Position numbers and translations under genes: made by a program. Positions 1,419 to 41,062 of a DNA stretch of 42,778 nt are shown here, in pieces. The stretch is from a virus (taxonomy: Duplodnaviria; Heunggongvirae; Uroviricota; Caudoviricetes): IMG/VR virus record IMGVR_UViG_2541047878_000002, positions 1 through 42,778 of that record. One strand, written 5' to 3'. Every line of letters starts with the position of its first letter. Positions within the stretch are counted from its first letter, which is position 1. The notes beneath the pieces are model-generated. The model was not told the DNA's origin and did not search any database. It worked only from the letters and a program-made list of their open reading frames with translations.

Positions 1419-2489
1419 TTATTTGATTTCAATTTTGTCCCACTCCCTGCCTCTGTCATCACGATACTGTGATGCCATGGTGTCCGACTTATGCCCGAGA
1501 AGATGTTGAGCAAACTTATCGCTTATCTGCTTCTCATAGAGTCTTGCAGACAAACTGCGCAACTCGTGAAAGGTAGGCGGATCCCCTTCGAAGGAAAGAC
1601 CTGATGCTTTTCGTGCGCGCATAAAATACCTTGATACTGTGCCGGATGAAAGCGGTTCACGACGAGTAGATGCAATTATGGTTTCTCCGCCAAGAATCTC
1701 TTTGCATTTATCAAGTGTTTCCTTCATTGATATCCCAAGAGCATCAACATGCAATGTTGTTGGGATGGCAATTTTTACGCCGGTTTTGCTTTGCTCGACA
1801 TAAAGATAGCCATCTACGATATCAGACCACTTCATTTCGCATAAATCCCCAACACGCTGCCCGGTAACAACAGCCAGTTCCATTGCAAGTCTAAGCCAAC
1901 ATGGTGATGATTCTGCTGCTTGATAAATTTTCAGGTATTCGTCAGCCGTAAGTCTTGATCTCCTTACCTCTGATTTTGCTGCGCGAGTGGCAGTGACCGG
2001 GTTTGTTGTTATATGGCCTTCAGCTATTGCCTCTCGGAATGCATCGCTCAGTGTTGATCTGATTAACTTGGCTGACGCCGCCTTGCCCTCGTCTATGTAT
2101 CCATTGAGCATTGCTGCAATTTCTTTTGTGGTGATGTCTTCAAGTGGAGCATCAGGCAGCCCCCTCCTTATTGCTTTAATTTTGCTCATGTAATTTATGA
2201 GTGTCTTCTGCTTGATTCCTCTGTTGGCGAGGATTTTTTCGTAGCGATCAAGCCATGAATGTAACGTAACAGAATTATCACTGTTGATTCTCGCTGTCAG
2301 AGGCTTGTGTTTGTGTCCTGAAAATAACTCAATGTTGGCCTGTATAGCTTCAGTGATTGCTATCCTCCTGTCTCGGCCTAATCCAAACTCTTTACCCGTC
2401 CTTGGGTCCCTGTAGCAGTAATATCCATTGTTTCTTATATAAAGATTAGGGGGTAAATCCCGGCGCTCATGACTTCGCCTTCTTCCCAT
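1419..2489 (-). CDS. int: Tyrosine integrase, lambda Int type
   Basis: 356 aa, N-terminus MGRRRSHERRDLPPNLYIRNNGYYCYRDPRTGKEFGLG matches recalled lambda Int; adjacent to attL and reading toward it. Confidence 0.95.
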   Translation of the reverse strand: MGRRRSHERRDLPPNLYIRNNGYYCYRDPRTGKEFGLGRDRRIAITEAIQANIELFSGHKHKPLTARINSDNSVTLHSWLDRYEKILANRGIKQKTLINYMSKIKAIRRGLPDAPLEDITTKEIAAMLNGYIDEGKAASAKLIRSTLSDAFREAIAEGHITTNPVTATRAAKSEVRRSRLTADEYLKIYQAAESSPCWLRLAMELAVVTGQRVGDLCEMKWSDIVDGYLYVEQSKTGVKIAIPTTLHVDALGISMKETLDKCKEILGGETIIASTRREPLSSGTVSRYFMRARKASGLSFEGDPPTFHELRSLSARLYEKQISDKFAQHLLGHKSDTMASQYRDDRGREWDKIEIK

Positions 2490-2685
2490 TTTTGATCCTC
2501 TTCAAAAGGCTACCTGTTACTGGTCGATTTAAGTCAACCTTTACCGCTGATTCGTGGAACAGATACTCTCTTCCATCCTTAACCGGAGGAGGGAATATCC
2601 TGCACTCGCGTACCCATCGACGAACTGTTTCAAGGCTTCTTGGGCGTCGCTGGCGTGCGTTCCACTCCTGAAGTGTCAAGTACAT
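2467..2685 (-). CDS. xis: Excisionase, lambda Xis type
   Basis: 72 aa MYLTLQEWNARQRRPRSLETVRRWVRECRIFPPPVKDGREYLFHESAVKVDLNRP…; overlaps int start by 23 nt as in lambda. Confidence 0.9.
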   Translation of the reverse strand: MYLTLQEWNARQRRPRSLETVRRWVRECRIFPPPVKDGREYLFHESAVKVDLNRPVTGSLLKRIKNGKKAKS

Positions 2686-2775
2686 CGCAAAGTCTCCGCA
2701 ATTACACGCAAGAAAAAACCGCCATCAGGCGGCTTGGTGTTCTTTCAGTTCTTCAATTCGAATATTGGTTACGTC

Positions 2776-3087
2776 TTATTCGATGCGCACTCCTGGTATT
2801 TCGCCTTTTGATATTGCGAAGTCATAAATTTGCGCAGCACTATACCCATCTCGCATCCATGAATCTAATGCGCGAATAGCCTCGCTACGCTTTTTATCTT
2901 CTCTCTCATTTTTGATATCAACGAGGACATCAACGCAATTAAGGCAAATGTGGATTTTGTCCTTACATTCGATCATGGCGGCTTTACCATGATTTCCGCC
3001 ACACAGTGAGCATAAATCTTCAGGGTCTGGCTGGTATTTCTGTAACGTTAGATGGTTGAATGTTGAACAGGCCATAATCATCTCCAT
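2776..3087 (-). CDS. Hypothetical Cys-rich early-left protein (CxxC…CxxC, possible zinc ribbon)
   Basis: 103-aa ORF co-oriented with the pL operon; motifs CSLCGG…CLNC. Confidence 0.45.
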   Translation of the reverse strand: MEMIMACSTFNHLTLQKYQPDPEDLCSLCGGNHGKAAMIECKDKIHICLNCVDVLVDIKNEREDKKRSEAIRALDSWMRDGYSAAQIYDFAISKGEIPGVRIE

Positions 3088-3146
3088 AAAACAAAACTCG
3101 CCGTAGCGAGTTCAGATAAAAGAAATCCCCGCGAGTTCGAGGATTG

Positions 3147-3470
3147 TTATTCATTGCCGATATTCACCTTTATCGCGAACACCTTTACCGGTTTATCGCC
3201 GAAGTGCGGATGTGTGATTGTCTTGATTTCATATCCGTCATACGGAACATCAATTCTACGGCTGGAATCGTCGCGCTTCGGATATCCCTTTGTGATAATC
3301 AGGCGATCATACTCCCGGAACATAATTCGCTTATTCCAGTAGTCATTACACAGGCGATACTCTTCCGTTTTCTCTCTGCGAATCATGGCATCGAAGTATT
3401 CACCTTTAACGGCAAGTTGTAGGTTAGCCAAGGTTAACCTCCTGCGGCGGTTCTGCTGCAAAATACGCAA
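3147..3470 (-). CDS. Hypothetical protein, possibly DUF3850/ASCH-like
   Basis: 107 aa; pattern LQLAVKGEYFDAMIRREKTEEYRLCNDYW resembles the recalled ASCH/DUF3850 signature (YF.A...G.KT.E.R.ND); family assignment from memory only. Confidence 0.45.
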   Translation of the reverse strand: MRILQQNRRRRLTLANLQLAVKGEYFDAMIRREKTEEYRLCNDYWNKRIMFREYDRLIITKGYPKRDDSSRRIDVPYDGYEIKTITHPHFGDKPVKVFAIKVNIGNE

Positions 3471-4185
3471 TACCTTTATCCCAGATGGATTTTATGGTCG
3501 TCCATGTGACTGGTACTTTAATTTCAATCCGCCCGCTACCGTCACAGGTATCGCAATCATCATCGCCAAAGCATTCCGGGCAGCTGATAAACGTAGTTTC
3601 TGAAAATTCACCGGATAGCGCACCCTTAGCGCCGTTCTCGGCTGTTAGTCTCTTCGGCACCATGACCCAACCATCCGGAGTTACCGGAGAGTTGCCATTT
3701 ACATCGAAGTTTGGCTCTGCGTCCTGAACCAGGAGGATGTAACCATTCTTGGCAGTATCAAGTTCTAACGCCTCGGTGACGGTGCCGAAATAGCGATTAC
3801 CTAAATCAGCATCACAAGTGCTTACATCAATGGAAACTTCCATGCCTTCGATTAATTCTGGCAAGTTGTAAGTTTGGCTTACAGGTTGGCTACCCTGAAG
3901 CATGGAGGCGCGGTGACACCAGATAATCCAGCCAAGCGCCATATCCCATGCCATGTATTCTCTATCGCCATTTTTTGCCCTACGGCGATCTACAGATTCC
4001 CCGAAACGCTTCTCCATAAATAATTCATAGGCTGCTCGTTCATCCGATACTGCTGCCAGTGATGCCAGTGCAATTCGTGCCAGTTCTTCCGCTTCTTCTG
4101 CTGGAAGTACAACGTTGCTACCCGGTCCGTATGTTTCGCGCCACTGCTTGATTGTCAGCAGTCGCTCTTTGGTAATAGTGGTCAT
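3424..4185 (-). CDS. Hypothetical early-left protein with C-terminal Cys cluster
   Basis: 253-aa ORF, C-terminal CPECFGDDDCDTCDGSG motif; no family recognised. Confidence 0.5.
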   Translation of the reverse strand: MTTITKERLLTIKQWRETYGPGSNVVLPAEEAEELARIALASLAAVSDERAAYELFMEKRFGESVDRRRAKNGDREYMAWDMALGWIIWCHRASMLQGSQPVSQTYNLPELIEGMEVSIDVSTCDADLGNRYFGTVTEALELDTAKNGYILLVQDAEPNFDVNGNSPVTPDGWVMVPKRLTAENGAKGALSGEFSETTFISCPECFGDDDCDTCDGSGRIEIKVPVTWTTIKSIWDKGIAYFAAEPPQEVNLG

Positions 4186-31244: not shown

Positions 31245-32720
31245 ATGGCTACTTGGCAACAAGGAATCAACTCAGGCGGTTTTCTTGCTGGTATCGGTGG
31301 GCAAAACTCAAATGCGCCAAAGGCAAGTGATGTAAGTGAGGCGTTGGCCTATATTCGCCAGAACAACGAAATGGAGCGCTCAGGTCGCAATAACATCGGC
31401 CTTCAGGCGTTGCAGGGGCTTGGTAGTGTCGCTCAAACATATCAAGCCGCAAAGCAACAGGAAGTGGATGCTGCATTCCAAAAAGAATATGCGGCAGCCA
31501 TCCAGTCAGGTGATCGACAGCAGGTTCGAGATCTGATGACCAAATATCCTGGTCAATTAGAGAAGATTCAGTCTGGTATGAAGTGGGCTGACGAAGACCA
31601 GCGTGATGAAATTGGCAATCTAGCGGCAGGCGGTCAAATTGCCTCCATGATGGGTGGTGATGCATTTAGCAAGTGGATTGGAAACAATGCAACCAGATTG
31701 TCTAATCAGGGGGTAGACCCACAACAACTCCTCAGCATGTATCAAAAAGACCCACAAGCAACATCACAACTTATCGGACAATATGGTCAGTTTGCATTAG
31801 GCCATGAAAAGTATTGGGATTTACAGGACAAGATGGTTGGTCGTGAGATTGACCGAGGCAGGCTGGCAGAGACAATCCGCAGCAATCAGGCCAGCGAAGC
31901 ACTTCAGGCGAGAGGGCAGGATATTAGCCGAGCAAATGCGTTAACGTCAGCATATGCACCAACAGCCGCAATGCAGAATTACAATCAGTACGCGCAAATG
32001 TTAAAGGCGGATCCAGATGGTGCAGCGGCATTTGCGGCAGCGGCGGGAATTAATCCCAATGCTAAGAAATTACTTAAGGTTGAAACCAATCCTGATGGCT
32101 CGGTAACTAAGTATTACACCGATGGCAGCGAGGAAGCCGGAAAACTAAACCAACCTATATCTGGTGATGGCATTAAACCAATTAGTTTGCCACAAGCGCA
32201 AAGCATCATAGATAAGGCTAATGAGGGTTCCAAGAAGGCGGCGGGATTTGCTTTGCGATTAAAAGATTCAATGGACTCAATGAATCAGCTTAGTAAAAGC
32301 ATTGACCCTAAGCGAGTTGCATTAATAAATCGCTCTCTTGGTGATGGGACTATTGCAAATTTAAGCCTATCACCAGCGGAGCAGCAATATATGGTAAATG
32401 CGAGAGACGCCTTGTATGCAATTTTGCGCCCAGAAACAGGTGCAGCAATTACTCTGCCAGAGATGCAGGAGTATTCCAAAATGTACCTGCCTCAGCCCGG
32501 TGATTCCAAGGCTGCTACTGAAACAAAAATGCGAAAAATGCAGGGCCAATATAACTCATTACGTGGTCAGTCTGGTCGCGTTTATGATGCTTTGGTGGTT
32601 TCAAGTGCTGCAAATAGTCAACAACAGAGCAATAGCCAACAACCGACAAATACCCAACAGCAGCAGAGTCAATCCGGATCATATACCTCAAAATCAGGCA
32701 TTCAATTTACGGTGGAATGA
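31245..32720 (+). CDS. Ejection protein, gp20 position
   Basis: 491 aa, Gln/Ala-rich; size and order match P22 gp20. Confidence 0.7.
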
Positions 32721-34558
32721 TGAAAGTAACTGCAAACGGTAAGACATTTACCTTTCCTGATGGTACGAGCACCGAAGATATTGGCACCGCCATTGATGAG
32801 TATTTTGCTGGTCAGGCTGTTCAGCAACAAACAGTTAATCAGGCCAATAATGCACCAACACGGGAAGAACCATCATTGATGCAACAAGCTGGCGATTGGC
32901 TCACTGGTGGTCAAAGTGCAGGGCAAATTGCAGAACAGGCTGGTCGTGGTCTGGTAAACATACCATTTGACGTATTGCAGGGTGGCGCAAGTCTGATTAA
33001 TGCAATCAGTCAGGGGCTTGGTGGGCCAAAAGTTTTGGATGATGTTTATCGTCCAGTAGACAGACCGACAGACCCCTACGCTCAAGCTGGAGAAACAATT
33101 GGCGGGTATTTAGTTCCAGGAATTGGAACGGCAGGAAGCATGGCTATTGGATCACTGGCAGAGGCCGCAAATCAGAAAGGCGATTTCGCACAAAATGCAG
33201 CTAAAAATGCCGGAGTTAACCTTGCCGCTCAGGGTGTTCTTTCCGCAGCAGCAAAGGGAATAGGGCGTGGAATAACGGCTATAAAAGGTGATATTGCGCC
33301 AGAAGTGGCGAAGAAAATTGCCACTTCAGAATCGATGGGCGTGACACCAATGACATCTGATGTTATCCCGCCGAAAAATGCTTTCACTCGCGGCCTTACT
33401 CAGGATGCCGAGGGGGCTTTGCTCGGGACAGGCTCAAAGCGAGCGGAGCAATATGCAACGCGTAGTAAGCTGGTAAGCAATTATTTTGACCGTTTTGGTG
33501 AGTACAACCCTGATGATGTGGTGAAATCTCTGACCACCACGTTAAGGGGGCGGAAGGATGCTGCTGGCGCTGTTATCAATGACGTCACCAATAAAATGGG
33601 TAATGCCGCAGTTGATACCACAAATACCATGAATGCTCTGAATACAGCGATCGCAAGACAGGAACGGCTTGGGACTTCAGCCAATCAAAGCCTGCTTACA
33701 TCCTTGCGTAACCTACGTGAAGAATTAGCAAACCCTGCAACTGATTTGGATGTTACGTTTGATCTCTTGCGTCAGCACAGAACAGCATTTAGATCTAATG
33801 TTCAGGGAGATTCTATGGTCTTCCCCAACCAGGCAAAAGCAGCTACCAATATGGTAGAGAATGCAATGTCAAAAGACCTTCGTAACGCAGTTGCTAAAAA
33901 CCTCGGTGCATCAGACGCAGCAAAATACCTTAAAGCAAATTCAGATTATGCAAACGTTTATAATAAGGTGCTTAATAAAAACATTGCTAACAAGCTCAAC
34001 AAGGCAAGCAGTGAAGCCAGTCCTGAACTTATAAATACCGTTGTATTAAGCAGAAAACCATCTGACGTGAAACGAATCTGGAGCGCATTGGATGATAAAG
34101 GGAAAGATGCTATGCGTGCAGCTTACGTCAGCAAAATAGCGGAAAAGGCCGGTGATTCTCCAGCCAAGTTCATCACTGAAGTTAATAAGCTGAAATCTCA
34201 GTCAGGTGGTGAAATTTACAACACTATTTTTTCTGGAAAGCACATGAAAGAGCTTGATTCTCTTCATGAAGTTCTACAGCAAACAGCAAGGTCAGACACC
34301 GCAAATGTAGTAACTCAGACGGGGCAATCGCAAGCCAACCGGATAAGGACGATTGGCGCAACTGCGACTCTTGGCGTATCAATGGGGCTTGAGGCTGGCT
34401 TTGGTGCAATGATGCGTTTGTATGAGTCTAAAGCAGCAAGGAATGCTCTCTTACGTTTGGCAAACACCAAAGCAGGAACACCAGCCTATGAAAGAGCGCT
34501 GAATAACGCCGCAAATGCCATCAGACCAATACTTGCCAATGATGCAACTGATCGCTAA
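32717..34558 (+). CDS. Ejection protein, gp16 position
   Basis: 613 aa; size and order match P22 gp16. Confidence 0.7.
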
Positions 34559-34579
34559 GGGTTGATGTCATGGATGTTG

Positions 34580-35218
34580 TTAATTGCGAATGGAATCGCG
34601 GAACTCTTTGCTTGATAGAAAAGGATCTGTTCTCCTTAACTCATCATAGTTTTTATTAAACTTTCTTGCTTCACCTGGGTATCTGTTGAACAAAACATTG
34701 CAGAAAAAAGAGAGCAATAACTCACATATGAATGCTAATACCCTGAAAAATAAAGGTATAAAAAGAAGGGAAGGTTCATTGAAGTCTCTATTCCAAACAA
34801 AATAGACAATCATCCCGACATACCAAATTGATATCCCTATACTGATGATTGTTCCAACAGAGGTAACTACGATCCCGATTAAGTCGGACAGTCTGTTTGC
34901 CAGTAACTCATTTGAGTATCTTGCAATCATATACCGCCAACATTTTGCAATATCATCATGATCTGTAGAGTCTTCTGGAATAGCTAGGCTTCTACATATT
35001 GAAGTAGCTCTTTTTTTCTCAACTCTTTTTGAGAGCCATCCATTAAAGAGATACATCAACACCTGCGTTGCTATTCCTGCACCAAGTGATATCAAAGACA
35101 TCCCCAAAAATCGCCATCCTGGAGATAGTGACTGGTACTGCCAAACAAAAAAAATTAAAAAACCCAATGAGCCTATGACATAGGCTGATGTATCGCTATA
35201 TATATCTATTTTTTTCAT
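34580..35218 (-). CDS. AT-rich integral membrane protein (about 4 TM helices) at the P22 sieA position; candidate superinfection-exclusion or abortive-infection effector
   Basis: 212 aa from ATG 35218 with AAGGAG SD 10 nt upstream (ORF-track start is a GTG at 35251); strongly hydrophobic segments; low GC; directly downstream of the Mnt-like RHH gene on the same strand. Confidence 0.55.
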   Translation of the reverse strand: MKKIDIYSDTSAYVIGSLGFLIFFVWQYQSLSPGWRFLGMSLISLGAGIATQVLMYLFNGWLSKRVEKKRATSICRSLAIPEDSTDHDDIAKCWRYMIARYSNELLANRLSDLIGIVVTSVGTIISIGISIWYVGMIVYFVWNRDFNEPSLLFIPLFFRVLAFICELLLSFFCNVLFNRYPGEARKFNKNYDELRRTDPFLSSKEFRDSIRN

Positions 35219-35268
35219 TGAGTAGCCACTCCTTAGTTTTGAGCAGAACACCGGATGATAATGTTTTG

Positions 35269-35520
35269 TTATGTGTCTTTTGGGATTCTATCCAGTAACT
35301 CGTTGGAAATTTTATCAAGTAAAGATTTTATTTGTTTAAGATCTAATGATTTGTCTACTGATGAGACGTCAGATGATAACGCATCCTCAAGAATTTGAAC
35401 TATCTCTGAGTTCATAGATCGACCGTTTCGTTTAGCCCTTTCCGCAATAGCACTACGCATGCCGTCAGGCATTCTAACCGTAAATCTTTCTATGAAATTT
35501 GATTCGTCTTTTTCTGACAT
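35269..35520 (-). CDS. Mnt-like ribbon-helix-helix repressor (paralogue 1)
   Basis: 83 aa from ATG 35520: …RFTVRMPDGMRSAIAERAKRNGRSMNSEIVQILEDALS…, RHH core nearly identical to recalled P22 Mnt (…NGRSMNSELLQIVQDALS…); the hydrophobic N-extension of the ORF-track entry was rejected. Confidence 0.65.
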   Translation of the reverse strand: MSEKDESNFIERFTVRMPDGMRSAIAERAKRNGRSMNSEIVQILEDALSSDVSSVDKSLDLKQIKSLLDKISNELLDRIPKDT

Positions 35521-35569
35521 TTTCTTATTCGCAAGGCATATGAGCAATAAAAAACACAGTAGCATCATA

Positions 35570-35624
35570 TTGACATTATGAGCAATGGCATCATAATGGT
35601 GTCATGACATCATGGTGATGTCAT
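35570..35624 (+). promoter_or_regulatory. Divergent promoter/operator region: candidate Pant-like promoter plus 21-bp perfect palindromic operator
   Basis: -35 TTGACA 35570-35575, 16-bp spacer, -10 CATAAT 35592-35597; palindrome ATGACATCA-TGG-TGATGTCAT at 35604-35624 at the predicted transcription start. Confidence 0.5.
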
Positions 35625-35640
35625 TATGACGGAGATATTG

Positions 35641-35817
35641 ATGATGAGCGATGTTCTTTACAGTGGTCGTAAAAGTCAGAGTTTCCAGCTTCGTTTGCCA
35701 GCGCGAATGAAGGAGGAGATCAGACGCGTAGCTGAAATGGATGGAATTTCTATCAACTCTGCGATTGTGCAGCGACTGGCTAAAAGCCTGAGAGAGGAAA
35801 GAGCTAATGCCCAGTAA
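35641..35817 (+). CDS. Arc-like ribbon-helix-helix repressor
   Basis: 58 aa from ATG 35641 (GGAG SD 6 nt upstream; ORF-track start 35626): …QSFQLRLPARMKEEIRRVAEMDGISINSAIVQRLAKSL…, RHH fold as in P22 Arc. Confidence 0.6.
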   Translation: MMSDVLYSGRKSQSFQLRLPARMKEEIRRVAEMDGISINSAIVQRLAKSLREERANAQ

Positions 35818-35890
35818 AAATAGTGAAGCCCGGAAGTGCGCGAACACAAACCGGGCCTCTATGTCAGTAACCGTACTCAAGGAAACTAAC

Positions 35891-36529
35891 ATGAATATTG
35901 TAGCAAAATCAGATTATAACTTCCAAGGATTCACTTTTAACCCTGTAACAGAGGGCGGGTCTATCTGGTTTACCTCCACCGAACTAGCTAAGGCTCTCGG
36001 CTATAAAAAAACTGATGCCATCAGCCAAATTTATGCCCGTAATGCTGACGAATTTTCCGACTCAATGTCATTGACCCTCAATATGAAGGTCAACGGAATA
36101 AACAATAGCTTACGTAACAAATCGGTCAGAGTTTACTCACTCCGAGGCGCTCACTTGGTGGCGATGTTTGCTTCTACGCCCAAGGCCAAAGAGTTCCGCC
36201 GCTGGGTGCTGGATATTTTGGATCGGCAGGCAGAATGCTCACCGATTGCAAAACAGTTTACTGACGAAGAACTGGTTAATCTCTGCTACTTACAATTGTG
36301 GATGGAGAAGAGTCAACAAATGTGCAAACACATCTACCCAGGAATGAAGCAAATTGGTTCTGAGCTTTCTGGAAGGATTTACGATATTGCATATGAGACT
36401 CGCTACATGTCAGAAGAAACCAAGAAATCACTTCTTCGTGAAGTGAAGAATCTTGATACCAACAATTTTGTCGTAAAGAACGCTCAGCCAATGCTGGCAA
36501 AACTGCGCGGCGAGGAATGGATTCATTGA
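35891..36529 (+). CDS. Bro-N domain antirepressor-like protein
   Basis: 212 aa from ATG 35891 (AAGGA SD); N-terminal Bro-N-like segment …IWFTSTELAKALGY…VRVYSLRGAHLVAMFASTPKAKEFRRWVLDIL…; downstream of arc as ant is in P22. Confidence 0.6.
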   Translation: MNIVAKSDYNFQGFTFNPVTEGGSIWFTSTELAKALGYKKTDAISQIYARNADEFSDSMSLTLNMKVNGINNSLRNKSVRVYSLRGAHLVAMFASTPKAKEFRRWVLDILDRQAECSPIAKQFTDEELVNLCYLQLWMEKSQQMCKHIYPGMKQIGSELSGRIYDIAYETRYMSEETKKSLLREVKNLDTNNFVVKNAQPMLAKLRGEEWIH

Positions 36530-36617
36530 TTGGTGCGCCGGACGGCGCAAAAAGAAAACCGCCAGTGTGCTGCTGGCGGCCTATGTCACACCCTTACTAC
36601 CACATAAGGAATGCCTA

Positions 36618-37346
36618 ATGACTTTTAAGAATGTAGCAAACATCGGATCCGTTGTCACGGATAAAACCATTGACAGCCAGCGCCTGCTTGAGATGGTCAA
36701 TCATGCTCGTAGACAGTGCGGGGAAAAAGAAGTCCGCAATAACGACTTTATTGCACGCATTAAGGATGAACTTGAAGGTGAGCACTACGAAATTTTCGTA
36801 GTTCAAAAATCAAACAAGACAAGTTCTGAAAAAGTTGTTATGTCAATTAAGCAAGCCCTTCGAGTGGCTGCTCGTGAATCTAAAGCTGTTCGCCGCTCAC
36901 TGGTAGACCAACTTGAAAGTATGCAAGAAGCGCACATTAAAAGCGGTAAATCAGCGAGTGGACTTGTTGAGTATCGTCAAGCGCGAACATTGAAAATGAC
37001 GGTTGAAGCTGTTACCAATCTGTTCGATCTGATGCCAAATCTTGCGCCTGAGGCAAAGCAGACAGCGGCAGCAAGTATAATCAACCCGCTCGTTGGTTTT
37101 AATGCAATACCTCTTCCGGCAATAGAAGAGCATTACTACTCAGCAGGGGAGGTTGCAGAGCAGCTTGGAGTAACGGCCAACAAGATTGGTCGCATTGCTA
37201 ACGCAAACAACCTCAAAACTGAGCAGTACGGGAAGTTCTTCCTGGATAAATCGGCGCATTCCAGCAAACAGGTAGAGGCGTTTCGTTACAATTCTGAAGG
37301 CGTTAAAGCACTACAACACCTGCTACATGGCTCAAATGTGGCGTAA
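36618..37346 (+). CDS. Hypothetical protein, possibly a second antirepressor-type protein
   Basis: 242 aa from ATG 36618 with AAGGA SD; co-transcribed with arc-like and Bro-N genes; no confident family call. Confidence 0.45.
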   Translation: MTFKNVANIGSVVTDKTIDSQRLLEMVNHARRQCGEKEVRNNDFIARIKDELEGEHYEIFVVQKSNKTSSEKVVMSIKQALRVAARESKAVRRSLVDQLESMQEAHIKSGKSASGLVEYRQARTLKMTVEAVTNLFDLMPNLAPEAKQTAAASIINPLVGFNAIPLPAIEEHYYSAGEVAEQLGVTANKIGRIANANNLKTEQYGKFFLDKSAHSSKQVEAFRYNSEGVKALQHLLHGSNVA

Positions 37347-37364
37347 CATTTTATAATGAAAACT

Positions 37365-37390
37365 AAACCCGCTTAATCGCGGGTTTTTTC
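37365..37390. terminator. Bidirectional intrinsic terminator between convergent genes
   Basis: cccgc-ttaatc-gcggg hairpin flanked by A-run upstream and TTTTTTC downstream; overlaps the mnt paralogue-2 stop codon. Confidence 0.45.
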
Positions 37391-37630
37391 TTTCCTTAGA
37401 ATTTCAGCCGCAACTTCTTTTACTCGTTCCGAGATTAATGAGGCCAGCCTCTCTTCTTCATCACGATACCCGCTTACAGGTGATGGTTTGGAGAGTGATT
37501 CTTCCATCGTAGCCACAATTTCGGAATTGATAGACCTGTTATTCATTTTTGCACGCTGCTTAATCTTAGCGTGCAACTCGTGTGTAAGCCTCAAGTGGAA
37601 CTGCGCCTCATCGTATTTGCTGTACATCAT
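37373..37630 (-). CDS. mnt: Mnt-like repressor (paralogue 2, closest to P22 Mnt)
   Basis: 85 aa from ATG 37630: MMYSKYDEAQFHLRLTHELHAKIKQRAKMNNRSINSEIVATMEESLSKPSPVSGYRDEEERLAS… matches recalled P22 Mnt along its length; the ORF-track N-extension overlaps the tailspike and was rejected. Confidence 0.7.
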   Translation of the reverse strand: MMYSKYDEAQFHLRLTHELHAKIKQRAKMNNRSINSEIVATMEESLSKPSPVSGYRDEEERLASLISERVKEVAAEILRKEKTRD

Positions 37631-37762
37631 CAATGCCTCACCAAATGGGTGGAATGGCATCGTAAAACCTACTGTACAAATCAACAATCGTACCGTTTCG
37701 GTATGTAACAAATGCCAACCGTAGCCATGCTGCGGCGATTCCTTGTATCTGGAGCAAATTAA

Positions 37763-40468
37763 ATGACAGACATTACAGCCAATGTTGTAGTGAGCATGCC
37801 TTCGCAACTCTTCACTATGGCGCGTTCTTTTAAAGCCGTAGCTAATGGCAAAATTTATATCGGTAAAATTGACACTGACCCGGTAAATCCTGATAACCAG
37901 ATTCAGGTCTATGTTGGGAACGAAGATGGTTCTCACGTTCCTGTTGCACAGCCAATCGTCATCAATGCCGCTGGGTATCCAGTATATAACGGACAGATTG
38001 CCAAATTCGTAACCGTGCAAGGCCATTCTATGGCTGTTTACGATGCTTATGGCACTCAGCAGTTTTATTTCCCAAATGTATTAAAATACGATCCAGATCA
38101 GTTTGGCCCAGACTTCAAAGAGCAGTTATCTCAATCAGGAGCATACATTAATGATGATTCAAAAGGTGATGCATTAATTGGGGTAAGGCAGCCATTTACC
38201 GGGGCTGTAACTATAACTCAGCATGAAAACAATGCTCTTTTCTTAAATGTAAAACAATTCGGAGCAATTGGGGATGGGAAATATCATCCATTATCTGAGA
38301 GGTTTTCTTCAATTTCTGAAGCAAAATCCTTATATCCTTTTGTTGACTCATTATCTCAGTCAATAGACTGGGCCGCGTGGCAAGCTGCCCTTAACACAGG
38401 AAAGGTTATTTATGGTACTGATAATGCGTATGTAATAACGGATACGTTAACACCTGTTTCTGGTGGTGGGATAATTGGTCTTGGTGTGGGCAAATGGGTC
38501 TCCGGATATACTGCAACATTTGCTCCTGATATTACCACAGGGACCACATTCCTGATGTACGGGGTAGGAAATAAAAAATATACTGTAGATTGTGTTTCTA
38601 ATATGGATGTTAGTGGTGGTGTGGTTTCTAATCCATCTTCCGAAGACCCGTATACAACAACAGCACCTGCGTCATCATATGATTTATTGGATTTTACTAA
38701 CGGTGATGCTAATGGGACTACAAGAGCCACGCTTAAACCATTCTCTGCCGCAATATTGATGCCTGAGACAGGATGTGTTCGCCTTGAGAACTTTCGTGTT
38801 GTTCCATATTTCAATGGGCTGGATGGTTATAAAGACATTGCAAATACCGGTCTTGGCGATGAGTGGGATGTAGGTATTTGGTCACGTGCGTCTTTTGGCA
38901 ATGAATACCGCAATTTGCAGGTGGTTGGATACTGGCGCAAGACGGCACTTTTAAAAACGAACATTCCTGTATCTGGCACGCTGGCTGCTCAGGGCGAGGA
39001 TGAAAACTATTATCACTGTAGATTCCAGGGATTCAAGGGTGTTTCGATCCGCGCCAATGATGTATTCCGAATTACAGCGGTAACGTCCAGCACTATCGAA
39101 ATCCCATGGTCAGCAAGCCACACCTTCGAAACGTCCGGAGTTTTAAGATCTGGAGGCAGGAATTTCACTTATTCAGGATTATCCGTATCCGGTGATAAGT
39201 TAGTATTTACTGGAGTGTCTAACGCTTCTGAGGCAACAGTAGGTTCTACTATACGGCGAAATGACATAGATAACTTTGGTATGGCGGGAACGCAATTTTT
39301 CGATTGCTACATTACCAGCCTGTATCACCACACACATCTGCTTGCCACATCGCAATACCTGTCTCAACCATTCAGCCGACCATCAGAGTGTATGGAGGTT
39401 TCAGGGGAACCAGTTCGCGGTGTACAGGTACATGCAGGAACCATTCAGGGATGGGATGATGTTCTTATTCATCTGCATGACTGTGGAAATATGAACTTTT
39501 ACAGTACATATTTCGAAAGCCAGCAAGCATATGTAACTATAAATGGTGGTAATGCTATTGGTTATGGAGCACGTATGATAGCTTCCCGGCAATCAACAAG
39601 CTCATTACCATATGCAGCAGGGAATACACGAGTGCTTAGAATGGTCGGGTGCTCTGAAGGCAATGGCGTTGACTGGGGTCCTGTATTTAACAACTATACA
39701 GGAGGAAGATATAATTCTGGAGACGGTGTATTTAACCCCCGCGATGCATTTATAGACCATAAATCTCTTCCTGAGCAGTCAGGAGGTGAGTCAAGACTCG
39801 TATCACAAAAAGGAAATGCCAGAGTAGTATGTGGTGTTGGTAAAACTGTACTGCTTGGACCAACGTCAGGAGATTGTAATTTACAGAGTAATACCGGAAG
39901 TTTAAATATTAGAAGTGGGATAAGAGTAAGAGTCGGTCACGCTGATGGAACAGACTGGTGGTTGGCAGATGCTAATAAAATAGCTCCTGTTGATGATAAT
40001 GTTAAAGCTATTGGACAGCCATCAAACAGATGCTCTGTTATCTATGCAGGAACCGGGTCAATCAATACATCAGATGAAACTCTTAAAACAAGATATGATA
40101 TTATTAATGCAGAGCGTGATGCCGCTATTGAAATAAAGTCAGTCATCTATAAATTTAAATTTAATGACTCAATTAATCACAAAGGAATTGAGTCGTCCAG
40201 GTATCATTTTGGCGTTGGCGCTCAAACCGTAGGGGATATTCTTAGAAAGCATGGTTTAAATCCTGAGCAATATGCTTTTTGGTGTTACGATGAATGGCCT
40301 GACGTATGGGATGAAGAGGTGATAACTGAAGAGAGCACAGATCCTGATACAGGTGAGAAAATTTATTCTCAATATAAAACAGGAGATATGATTCTTGTAA
40401 AAAAAGCAGGAGGACGCTACGGAATTCGTTATGACGAATTGGCTATGTTTATATTAATGGCAATGTAG
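37763..40468 (+). CDS. Tailspike: P22 gp9-type head-binding N-domain + divergent receptor-binding domain + C-terminal intramolecular-chaperone-like domain
   Basis: 901 aa; residues ~1-115 match recalled P22 gp9 ([11 protein letters not shown]…[22 protein letters not shown]…); AT-rich distal part; C-terminus carries …NTS|[10 protein letters not shown]… (S770/D771). Confidence 0.85.
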
Positions 40469-40486: not shown

Positions 40487-40516
40487 ATCCCGCATAAAAA
40501 TGCGGGATTGTTTTTA
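40487..40516 (+). terminator. Intrinsic terminator after the tailspike
   Basis: atcccgca-taaaaa-tgcgggat hairpin followed by TGTTTTTA. Confidence 0.55.
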
Positions 40517-40972: not shown

Positions 40973-41062
40973 CTTGAGCGAAACGGGAAGGTAAAAAGAC
41001 AAAAAGTTGTTTTTAATACCTTTAAGTGATACCAGATGGCATTGCGCCATCTGGCAGAGTGA

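Follow-up and report, generated by a model that had tools for sequence, protein, structure and literature searches.

In phage P22, immI is a textbook circuit of ribbon-helix-helix (RHH) repressors and an antisense RNA. Does a region of similar design in an E. coli prophage, where three RHH genes accompany one antirepressor operon, work as a single switch of this kind, and which repressor would bind which operator? The DNA in question is a window of 42,778 nucleotides (IMG/VR record IMGVR_UViG_2541047878_000002, positions 1 to 42,778), which is a whole P22-like (Lederbergvirus-type) prophage of E. coli. An earlier note on this DNA had described 35269-37630 as one immI-like switch containing two Mnt paralogues, an Arc-like protein and a palindromic operator. 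Here we computed which genes are present and what they are homologous to, where the sites lie, and what is conserved, co-varies or is under purifying selection, and from these we infer protein-site pairings, promoter activity, RNA expression and the order in which sites are filled.

We think it probable that the region is the 'ant moron' of this prophage and that it is built from two regulatory modules working independently. These would be, with the same fair degree of confidence, an immI-like cassette (35269-37392) and an independent orphan Mnt module (37373-37704). In P22-like phages the ant moron fills the space from the gene 16 homologue to the tailspike gene (PMC2629481) and is the most variable part of the late operon, with ten types among sixteen genomes (Villafane et al. 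2008, PMC2629481). The locus is an ordinary variant of this known, highly variable region. The genes and sites on which the argument turns are these:

35269-35520, minus strand: mnt1, a putative RHH repressor of 83 amino acids (Pfam Arc, PF03869, 1.4e-17)
35641-35817, plus strand: arc-like gene, 58 amino acids, RHH, first gene of the ant operon (Pfam Arc, PF03869, 8.7e-12)
35891-36529, plus strand: antirepressor with Bro-N and P22AR_C domains (Pfam; PHROG 245, 'anti-repressor Ant', 8e-50)
36618-37346, plus strand: orf242, a second antirepressor-family gene (PHROG 1726, 'anti-repressor', 1.5e-100)
37373-37630, minus strand: mnt2, a full-length Mnt homologue of 85 amino acids (Pfam Arc, PF03869, 3.2e-15; PHROG 795, 6.6e-33)
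37659-37687, minus strand: proposed mnt2 promoter (-35 TTGTTG at 37687..37682, 17 nt, -10 TACGAT at 37664..37659)
37690-37704, unstranded: proposed Mnt2 operator GTACCGTTTCGGTAT (GTACC-N5-GGTAT), centred about 45 bp upstream of the mnt2 start

The three RHH genes, each of which matches Pfam Arc, are where the note had placed them.

Mnt2, its proposed promoter and its putative operator

The two proteins called Mnt differ in how much of Mnt they contain. Mnt2 aligns with P22 Mnt (PDB 1mnt) over residues 7-78 (phmmer, E 9.4e-16; 45% identity over 73 amino acids), so that homology runs through the C-terminal tetramerisation region. In Mnt1 this full-length homology is missing: its alignment with P22 Mnt is confined to an RHH part of 37-41 residues (residues 12-52), its best PHROG is 1287 instead of the 795 of Mnt2, and its best PDB match is AmrZ (3qoq, E 7e-8), covering the N-terminal arm and the RHH domain. 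Thus the second Mnt is indeed the more P22-like, as had been noted, and the idea of two Mnt-like proteins in one switch is not supported, one of the reasons being that Mnt1 shares only the RHH domain with Mnt. AmrZ, a Pseudomonas RHH regulator, resembles Mnt1 in having an RHH domain followed by a C-terminal extension; the resemblance is at the domain level only, and the biology and DNA sites are unrelated. An AlphaFold2 model places a C-terminal helix at residues 61-78 of Mnt1 with moderate confidence (predicted local distance difference test score, pLDDT, ~70). This helix is amphipathic and, as modelled, fits an oligomerisation helix, short of proof. The predicted architecture of Mnt1 is Mnt-like without being homologous beyond the RHH domain.

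Upstream of mnt2 we found a GAGG ribosome site (37639..37636) and the proposed promoter, which matches 8 of 12 positions; this is below the threshold of 9 used in our promoter scan, so that the promoter was not listed by the scan and was read from the sequence. It occupies the position of the ST64T promoter TTGTGG-17-TATGAT and of P22 Pmnt, and GGCATCGTA is invariant across diverged relatives. The putative operator abuts the -35 TTGTTG, as Omnt does relative to Pmnt in P22. A GTACC-N5-GGTAY site occurs once in the whole window, at 37690-37704. Furthermore, the sequence at this position co-varies with the DNA-reading strand of Mnt: HFNFRM goes with AGGTCCACGGTGGACCT in P22, QFNLRL with AAGACCACCGTGGTCTT in ST64T, and QFHLRL, the strand of Mnt2, with GTACC-N5-GGTAY in this group. 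Over eight diverged intergenic regions the operator arms TACC and GGTA and the -10 TACGAT are invariant while the flanks diverge, and the same holds for CAAT, part of the proposed -35, and for the surroundings of the ribosome site. A LexA box at 37670-37689 (CTGT-N8-ACAA) was considered and set aside, being imperfect and not conserved (relatives read CTGG).

In 80 of 80 IMG/VR relatives mnt2 lies directly beside the tailspike gene with no arc or ant between, and its reading frame is intact in all of them. The cargo on its other side varies: it may be of the RHH type or of the C2-like repressor type, it may be a small antirepressor, or all of these may be missing. The ratio of nonsynonymous to synonymous substitution rates (dN/dS) is 0.02-0.12, with 0.02 at 83% nucleotide identity and ~0.1 at 70%, in pairs down to 66%. 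Because purifying selection is this strong, mnt2 is not a remnant. We conclude that it is a maintained gene, probably autoregulated.

Mnt2 stays with the tailspike whatever the cargo, and it is of a kind already on record, the orphan mnt beside the tailspike. ST64T, ST104 and Para1 have only mnt and one unknown gene in the ant moron (PMC2629481), and in the records of ST64T, ST160, Gally, Sf101 and VSe13 we found mnt directly upstream of, and divergent from, the tailspike gene, with no arc or ant between. Like the orphan mnt of ST64T, ST104, L, ST160, Sf101 and VSe13, mnt2 is divergent beside the tailspike without intervening arc or ant, has a palindrome at the Omnt position and retains the leftward promoter. 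It differs from the ST64T type in its strand (QFHLRL instead of QFNLRL), in its operator (GTACC-N5-GGTAY instead of AAGACCACNGTGGTCTT) and in the complete second antirepressor cassette on its other side. Mnt2 would then be an orphan true Mnt of the ST64T/L type, with a weak promoter of its own and one palindromic operator.

Could Mnt2 instead serve its neighbour? Bound at 37690-37704, it might act as a gate ahead of the tailspike gene, blocking or modulating transcription that reads through from the late or ant operon, with tailspike dosage as the target. The invariable adjacency to the tailspike would suit such a role, as would the placement of the site between the ant-operon terminator and the tailspike start. 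However, adjacency may only mark a recombination boundary, the tailspike leader being a conserved 'boundary sequence', and in the interval from mnt2 to the tailspike the scan gave no rightward sigma-70 promoter. Where the -35 and -10 of P22 Pant have their homologous positions, the sequence reads ATGGCA and CAAATC; the rightward promoter that is under the control of Omnt in P22 has decayed here. We regard the gate as rather unlikely.

A single integrated switch, in which both Mnt proteins would act at the 35570 promoter (Mnt2, for example, as a second maintenance repressor), draws on the arrangement of the genes: mnt1 and mnt2 flank the same operon, both encode RHH repressors, and mnt2 and the ant operon converge on a shared terminator, which could couple them. 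Against this, Mnt2 has its own conserved putative operator, the sole one in the window, and nothing like GTACC-N5-GGTAY is present in 35560-35630 or in the wider 35520-35640. Because the cassette promoter is without a recognisable site, Mnt2 would not control the cassette's antirepressor. In addition, Mnt2 and its site are unchanged whether the neighbour is a C2-like cassette or a small antirepressor, or whether every cargo gene that was searched for is missing, and the class of Mnt1 and the promoter sites swap together, independently of Mnt2 (see below). We consider one integrated switch highly improbable.

That mnt2 is a non-functional remnant of an older immI that lost arc and ant, a question the phage L genome paper left open for its own mnt-like gene, finds some favour in the decayed rightward promoter (-10 position CAAATC) and in RNA sequencing (RNA-seq) of Kapi1 lysogens, which did not detect mnt (PMC12922286), but we give it very little credence in view of the low dN/dS, the intact frames in 80 of 80 relatives, and a -10, ribosome site and operator arms that are invariant while the flanks diverge. 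The strong purifying selection and the conserved promoter and operator are evidence that this tailspike-adjacent orphan mnt is functional.

Three related sites at the ant promoter and the protein that they follow

At the other end of the region, mnt1 diverges from the arc-like, antirepressor and orf242 genes. The sites in this divergent promoter region are as follows:

35570-35597, plus strand: ant-operon promoter, TTGACA-16 nt-CATAAT, 11 of 12 positions matched
35559-35579, unstranded: site 1, GTAGCATCA-TAT-TGACATTAT, a weak 21-bp member of the repeat family, from the ERFTV-class alignment
35585-35605, unstranded: site 2, ATGGCATCA-TAA-TGGTGTCAT, over the -10 of the ant promoter
35604-35624, unstranded: site 3, ATGACATCA-TGG-TGATGTCAT, with perfect 9-bp arms, covering about +1 to +21 relative to the ant promoter

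The promoter, with TTGACA at 35570-75 and CATAAT at 35592-97, was the best sigma-70-like site in 34500-38000, and the near-consensus promoter reported earlier is thereby confirmed. Of the perfect 21-bp palindrome that had been reported at 35604-35624, the location and the perfect 9-bp arms stand; the central TGG is asymmetric, and the site is better called a 9-3-9 inverted repeat. By itself this repeat is not beyond chance: the window holds four perfect inverted repeats of this size (arms of 9 bp, loops of 0-5 nt), where about one is expected (maximum four in 30 shuffles). It is meaningful because it lies in a 120-bp divergent promoter region, because a second copy is present at 35585-35605, and because its arms are conserved. 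Sites 2 and 3 differ by 2 mismatches, and 0 such copies are expected from 100 shuffles.

The layout is that of P22 immI. There, the sequence order is TTGACA, Oarc, TATATT and Omnt at the start site, and the window has the same geometry, with a Mnt-like gene divergent from an arc-ant operon, weak leftward promoter candidates that overlap the strong 35570-35597 promoter, and the 9-3-9 repeat as a predicted Mnt-type operator at the ant promoter start. The earlier description of an immI-like switch with a palindromic candidate operator at the predicted start site therefore holds for the cassette. Compared with immI of P22 and epsilon34 (Sauer et al. 1983; PMC2629481), the window shares the slot between the gene 16 homologue/sieA and the tailspike, the divergent arrangement, the consensus -35 and the palindrome at the start site. 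It also shares the sar promoter and hairpin, which align in sequence, and a terminator before the tailspike. It differs in that Mnt1 has only the RHH domain in common with Mnt, three related sites take the place of the single Omnt, an Oarc is not recognisable, the N-terminal domain of the antirepressor is Bro-N, a second antirepressor-family gene is present, possibly with its own antisense RNA, and an additional full Mnt homologue lies downstream.

To which protein do the three sites belong? We collected 160 related loci from IMG/VR, which gave 90 distinct combinations of Mnt-like protein, intergenic region and Arc-like protein, and sorted them by DNA-reading beta-strand. The strand of Mnt1 is ERFTVRM, and the ERFTV-class alignment comprises 23 distinct intergenic regions. 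In it the half-sites are invariant and the spacers vary. All 21 distinct ERFTVRM regions keep TAGCATCA, TTGACAT, ATGRCATCA-TAA-TGRTGYYA and GRCATCA-N3-TGATGYYA, in that order, whatever the Arc-like class. Thus the left half-site of site 1 (TAGCATCA), which overlaps the -35 of the ant promoter, is invariant in relatives, as is TTGACAT; site 2 is kept in all ERFTV-class relatives; and site 3 has conserved arms around a variable spacer (TGG, TAG, AAA or AAG). The number of [GA]CATCA motifs per intergenic region averages 4.5 in the 21 ERFTVRM regions versus 0-1.1 in each other class with more than one region, and is 2.0 in the one single DKFMVRF region. This count is independent of the class of the paired Arc-like protein (QSFQLRL, DSFQLRL, ESFQLRL, QSFLLRL or DSFQLRM), and the one ERFTVRF region, which is paired with GGVMLRL, has a count of 5.

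The converse comparison is provided by prophage L011. The Arc-like strand QSFQLRL pairs with the Mnt-like class ERFTVRM, as in the window, or with DRFNIRL, as in L011, and the Arc-like proteins of the two are identical from residue 9 onward. Despite this, their promoter palindromes are completely different: the L011-class promoter has TAGCACCA...TGGTGYTA and TTGGTTCTAGAACCAA and lacks GCATCA sites. In a sliding comparison, identity between the window and L011 is 33-70% over mnt1 and the promoter, and 93-100% over 35672-35911 as well as over the C-terminal half of the antirepressor, orf242 and mnt2. The regulator is thus exchanged together with its operator set, as one unit, and the Arc-like gene, sar and antirepressor stay the same.

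Because the sites travel with the Mnt-like class and not with the Arc-like class, Mnt1 is most likely the protein that binds the GCATCA-type sites, and we infer that site 3, with its perfect arms, is the functional equivalent of Omnt. In the proposed mechanism, Mnt1 would bind three GCATCA-type 21-bp sites placed over the -35, the -10 and the start site of the ant promoter. Site 3 (+1 to +21) would probably be the strongest and would keep the ant operon silent in the lysogen; once the two weaker sites were occupied as well, mnt1 itself would be throttled too. The Arc-like protein, made from the ant operon, would feed back negatively as Arc does in P22.

In another reading, the Arc-like protein, alone or along with Mnt1, would have the 21-bp palindrome as its operator. 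The Arc-like protein is, after all, an RHH protein encoded beside site 3, and no operator of its own was identified. However, the same protein, identical from residue 9, is found with the unrelated palindrome TTGGTTCTAGAACCAA at the equal position where the Mnt-like class differs, and the GCATCA sites are retained when the Arc-like strand is GGVMLRL or QSFLLRL. We therefore hold this assignment to be very unlikely. As for an Oarc equivalent, CATTATGA-N9-TCATAATG (35574-35598), between the -35 and the -10, was rejected: its left arm is not retained across 20 intergenic regions of relatives, and it is mostly two CATAAT hexamers facing each other.

Several observations weigh against the assignments made here. 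The short boxes common to cassettes of one Arc-like protein, AATGG and TGGT, 11 bp apart around the -10, are unchanged when the central strand residue of that protein changes; they do not follow the Arc-like strand class, and co-variation did not assign an operator to the Arc-like protein. SPN3UB and the O157 prophage L013 share the Mnt-like strand DKFNLRF, yet their intergenic regions and repeats are rather different, which means that the operator is not set by the strand residues alone. For the mnt1 promoter there are two candidates, TATGAT (35569..35564) and CATAAT (35580..35575), and neither placement is firm. For Mnt2, no target besides its own promoter was found, leaving the selective value of an autoregulated orphan unexplained. 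Finally, there is the missing mnt signal in Kapi1 mentioned above. Kapi1 is a related phage (PMC12922286), but as its ant moron is of a different type, Kapi1 (MT813197) was discarded as an expression proxy and its missing mnt reads are only weakly relevant.

The ant operon, its predicted antisense RNAs and the flanking genes

The remaining features of the region, including several beyond the earlier note, are listed here:

32717-34558, plus strand: gene 16-like ejection protein, from position and size, without a Pfam family
34580-35218, minus strand: SieA-like membrane protein, the left-hand neighbour (PHROG 7745, 'superinfection exclusion SieA-like', 1.8e-20), in the P22 order sieA-mnt
35815-35926, minus strand: predicted sar-like antisense RNA and its promoter (TTGGAA-18 nt-TG-extended TACAAT at 35926..35897)
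36547-36658, minus strand: candidate second antisense RNA, opposite the orf242 start (GTGACA-17-TGcTACATT at 36658..36630)
37365-37386, both strands: bidirectional intrinsic terminator, found on either strand
37763-40468, plus strand: tailspike with P22 head-binding domain, the right-hand neighbour (Pfam Head_binding, 1.3e-65)

What the note had not described are the sar homologue, the possible second antisense RNA, the antirepressor-family membership of orf242, the two further GCATCA-type sites that make up the three-site array, and the precedent in CUS-3 for two or three RHH genes in this region (see below). The near-consensus promoter would drive the arc-like gene, the antirepressor and orf242 up to the terminator at 37365-37386, which serves mnt2 as well and lies across its stop codon. 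The first product is an Arc-type RHH protein, 42% identical to P22 Arc, with GGAG 6 nt upstream of its ATG. The second is an Ant homologue and predicted antirepressor, with a C-terminal P22AR_C domain (4e-13) and an N-terminal Bro-N domain; its gene is 95% identical in nucleotides to ant of SPN3UB. The gene is also a mosaic by domain relative to L011: identity is only 33-68% in the Bro-N half (35912-36191) but 95-100% in the P22AR_C half and in the sar region on the other flank. The third, orf242, had no match in the Pfam search. A perfect 9-1-9 palindrome, ACTACGAAATTTTCGTAGT, lies inside its coding region at 36784-36802.

The spacer between the arc-like gene and the antirepressor, together with the first antirepressor codons, aligns with the annotated sar promoter and RNA of epsilon34 and P22. 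The alignment retains a TG-extended -10 (TTGCTAcAaT), the sequence complementary to the ant ATG, and the hairpin GAAGCCC...GGGCTTC with its T run. The predicted RNA would start at the 5' end of ant and run from ~35890 to 35815, ending in a hairpin (35859..35825) in the arc-ant spacer and a T run; for the transcript, predicted at 79 nt, the folding energy is -31 kcal/mol (z = -5.1). Scanning 34000-38500 against Rfam at E <= 1 produced no match to a sar family, the only matches being sub-threshold terminator-like ones (RyhB, isrK) at the 37365 hairpin. The sar-homologous RNA would cover the ribosome site of the antirepressor. The candidate second antisense RNA would start at ~36623 and has a strong minus-strand terminator hairpin (36582..36556) with a T run; its -10 and hairpin are conserved in SPN3UB, JEP4 and L011. 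It may act on orf242 in a similar way.

If these parts are taken jointly, the circuit could be more layered than that of P22. Mnt2 would be a dedicated tailspike-linked regulator (the gate considered above, or immunity in trans against the antirepressor promoters of incoming relatives), two sar-type RNAs would serve the two antirepressor genes, and the three-site Mnt1 array would fill in order. A role of Mnt2 in tailspike expression or in inter-phage immunity would, if true, explain its faithful retention beside the tailspike. As a joint claim we find this doubtful. A search of IMG/VR for an immI under a Mnt2-type operator, with the narrow pattern TTGACA-N20-40-GTACCNTTTNGGTA, gave 33 matches, all at unrelated loci with no RHH gene nearby, one of them a helix-turn-helix cI/cro-type region. 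Although the pattern is narrow, the search lends no support to the idea of immunity against an incoming ant.

On the tailspike side, P22-like phages whose ant morons differ widely share a conserved leader upstream of the tailspike, ccgtagccatgctgcggcgattccttgtatctggagcaaattaa (37715-37762). By position it matches the CUS-3 'boundary sequence' bsq1, and it can form a short hairpin, CCGTAGC...GCTGCGG; it may be a recombination boundary or a translation or processing signal. The tailspike (37763-40468) combines its P22 head-binding domain with a C-terminal intramolecular chaperone domain of the endosialidase type (Peptidase_S74). Two further perfect inverted repeats with 9-bp arms, downstream of it at 40487-40508 and 41032-41054, are probably terminators or attachment-region elements.

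The cassette in other phages

At least 26 complete E. coli genomes contain at least 80% of 35100-37800 together with three annotated 'Arc family' genes; the operator-repressor pairings proposed here are testable for a cassette common in E. coli prophages. Related cassettes are present in other P22-like prophages and in SPN3UB, a siphovirus, and they extend to O157:H7 lambdoid prophages. In O157:H7 FRIK944 (L013, locus 2320-3915) a Mnt-like/Arc-like/Ant cassette lies among the tail genes of a lambdoid prophage, and in E. coli LWY24 (L012, locus 2320-3898) one lies in a baseplate-gene cluster. Inserted as it is among tail genes and among baseplate genes, the cassette acts as a mobile moron in phages of different types. 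The SPN3UB, O157 and LWY24 cassettes have the same three-gene layout as that of the window and share the Arc-like family and the sar-type hairpin. They differ in the host-phage context and in the Mnt-like strand class, C-terminal domain and operator set, which are swapped as a unit.

A more distant exchange was seen in JEP4 (L001, locus 3093-4007) and in ~20 of the IMG/VR loci L174-L253, where a 190-amino-acid C2-like repressor replaces the RHH protein Mnt1, next to the same antirepressor-orf242 cargo and the same mnt2. Because a C2-like repressor stands in for Mnt1, the regulator of the cargo is interchangeable across repressor families.

CUS-3, a phage of E. coli K1, has two annotated mnt genes. 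We also observed that its segment 1711-2192 (L009, CP000711), annotated as non-coding 'bsq2 boundary sequence', contains an open reading frame for a 46-amino-acid Arc-like RHH protein (MKVKTLRMPEKLEK...; Pfam Arc, 3e-8) and a sar-type hairpin, GAAGCCCCAACTGCGGGAACAGTCAGGGCTTC. A statement in the literature that arc is missing from CUS-3 may therefore have to be revised. With two mnt genes and an Arc-like reading frame in CUS-3, several RHH genes in this slot have a precedent. The window resembles CUS-3 in having more than one Mnt-like RHH gene by one antirepressor operon, and three RHH genes when the Arc-like reading frame is counted. In CUS-3, however, both mnt genes lie in tandem to one side of the operon, and the P22-type copy is left without its promoter and operator, since the junction coincides with the P22 -35, whereas the old mnt of the window keeps both because the cassette lies on its other side.

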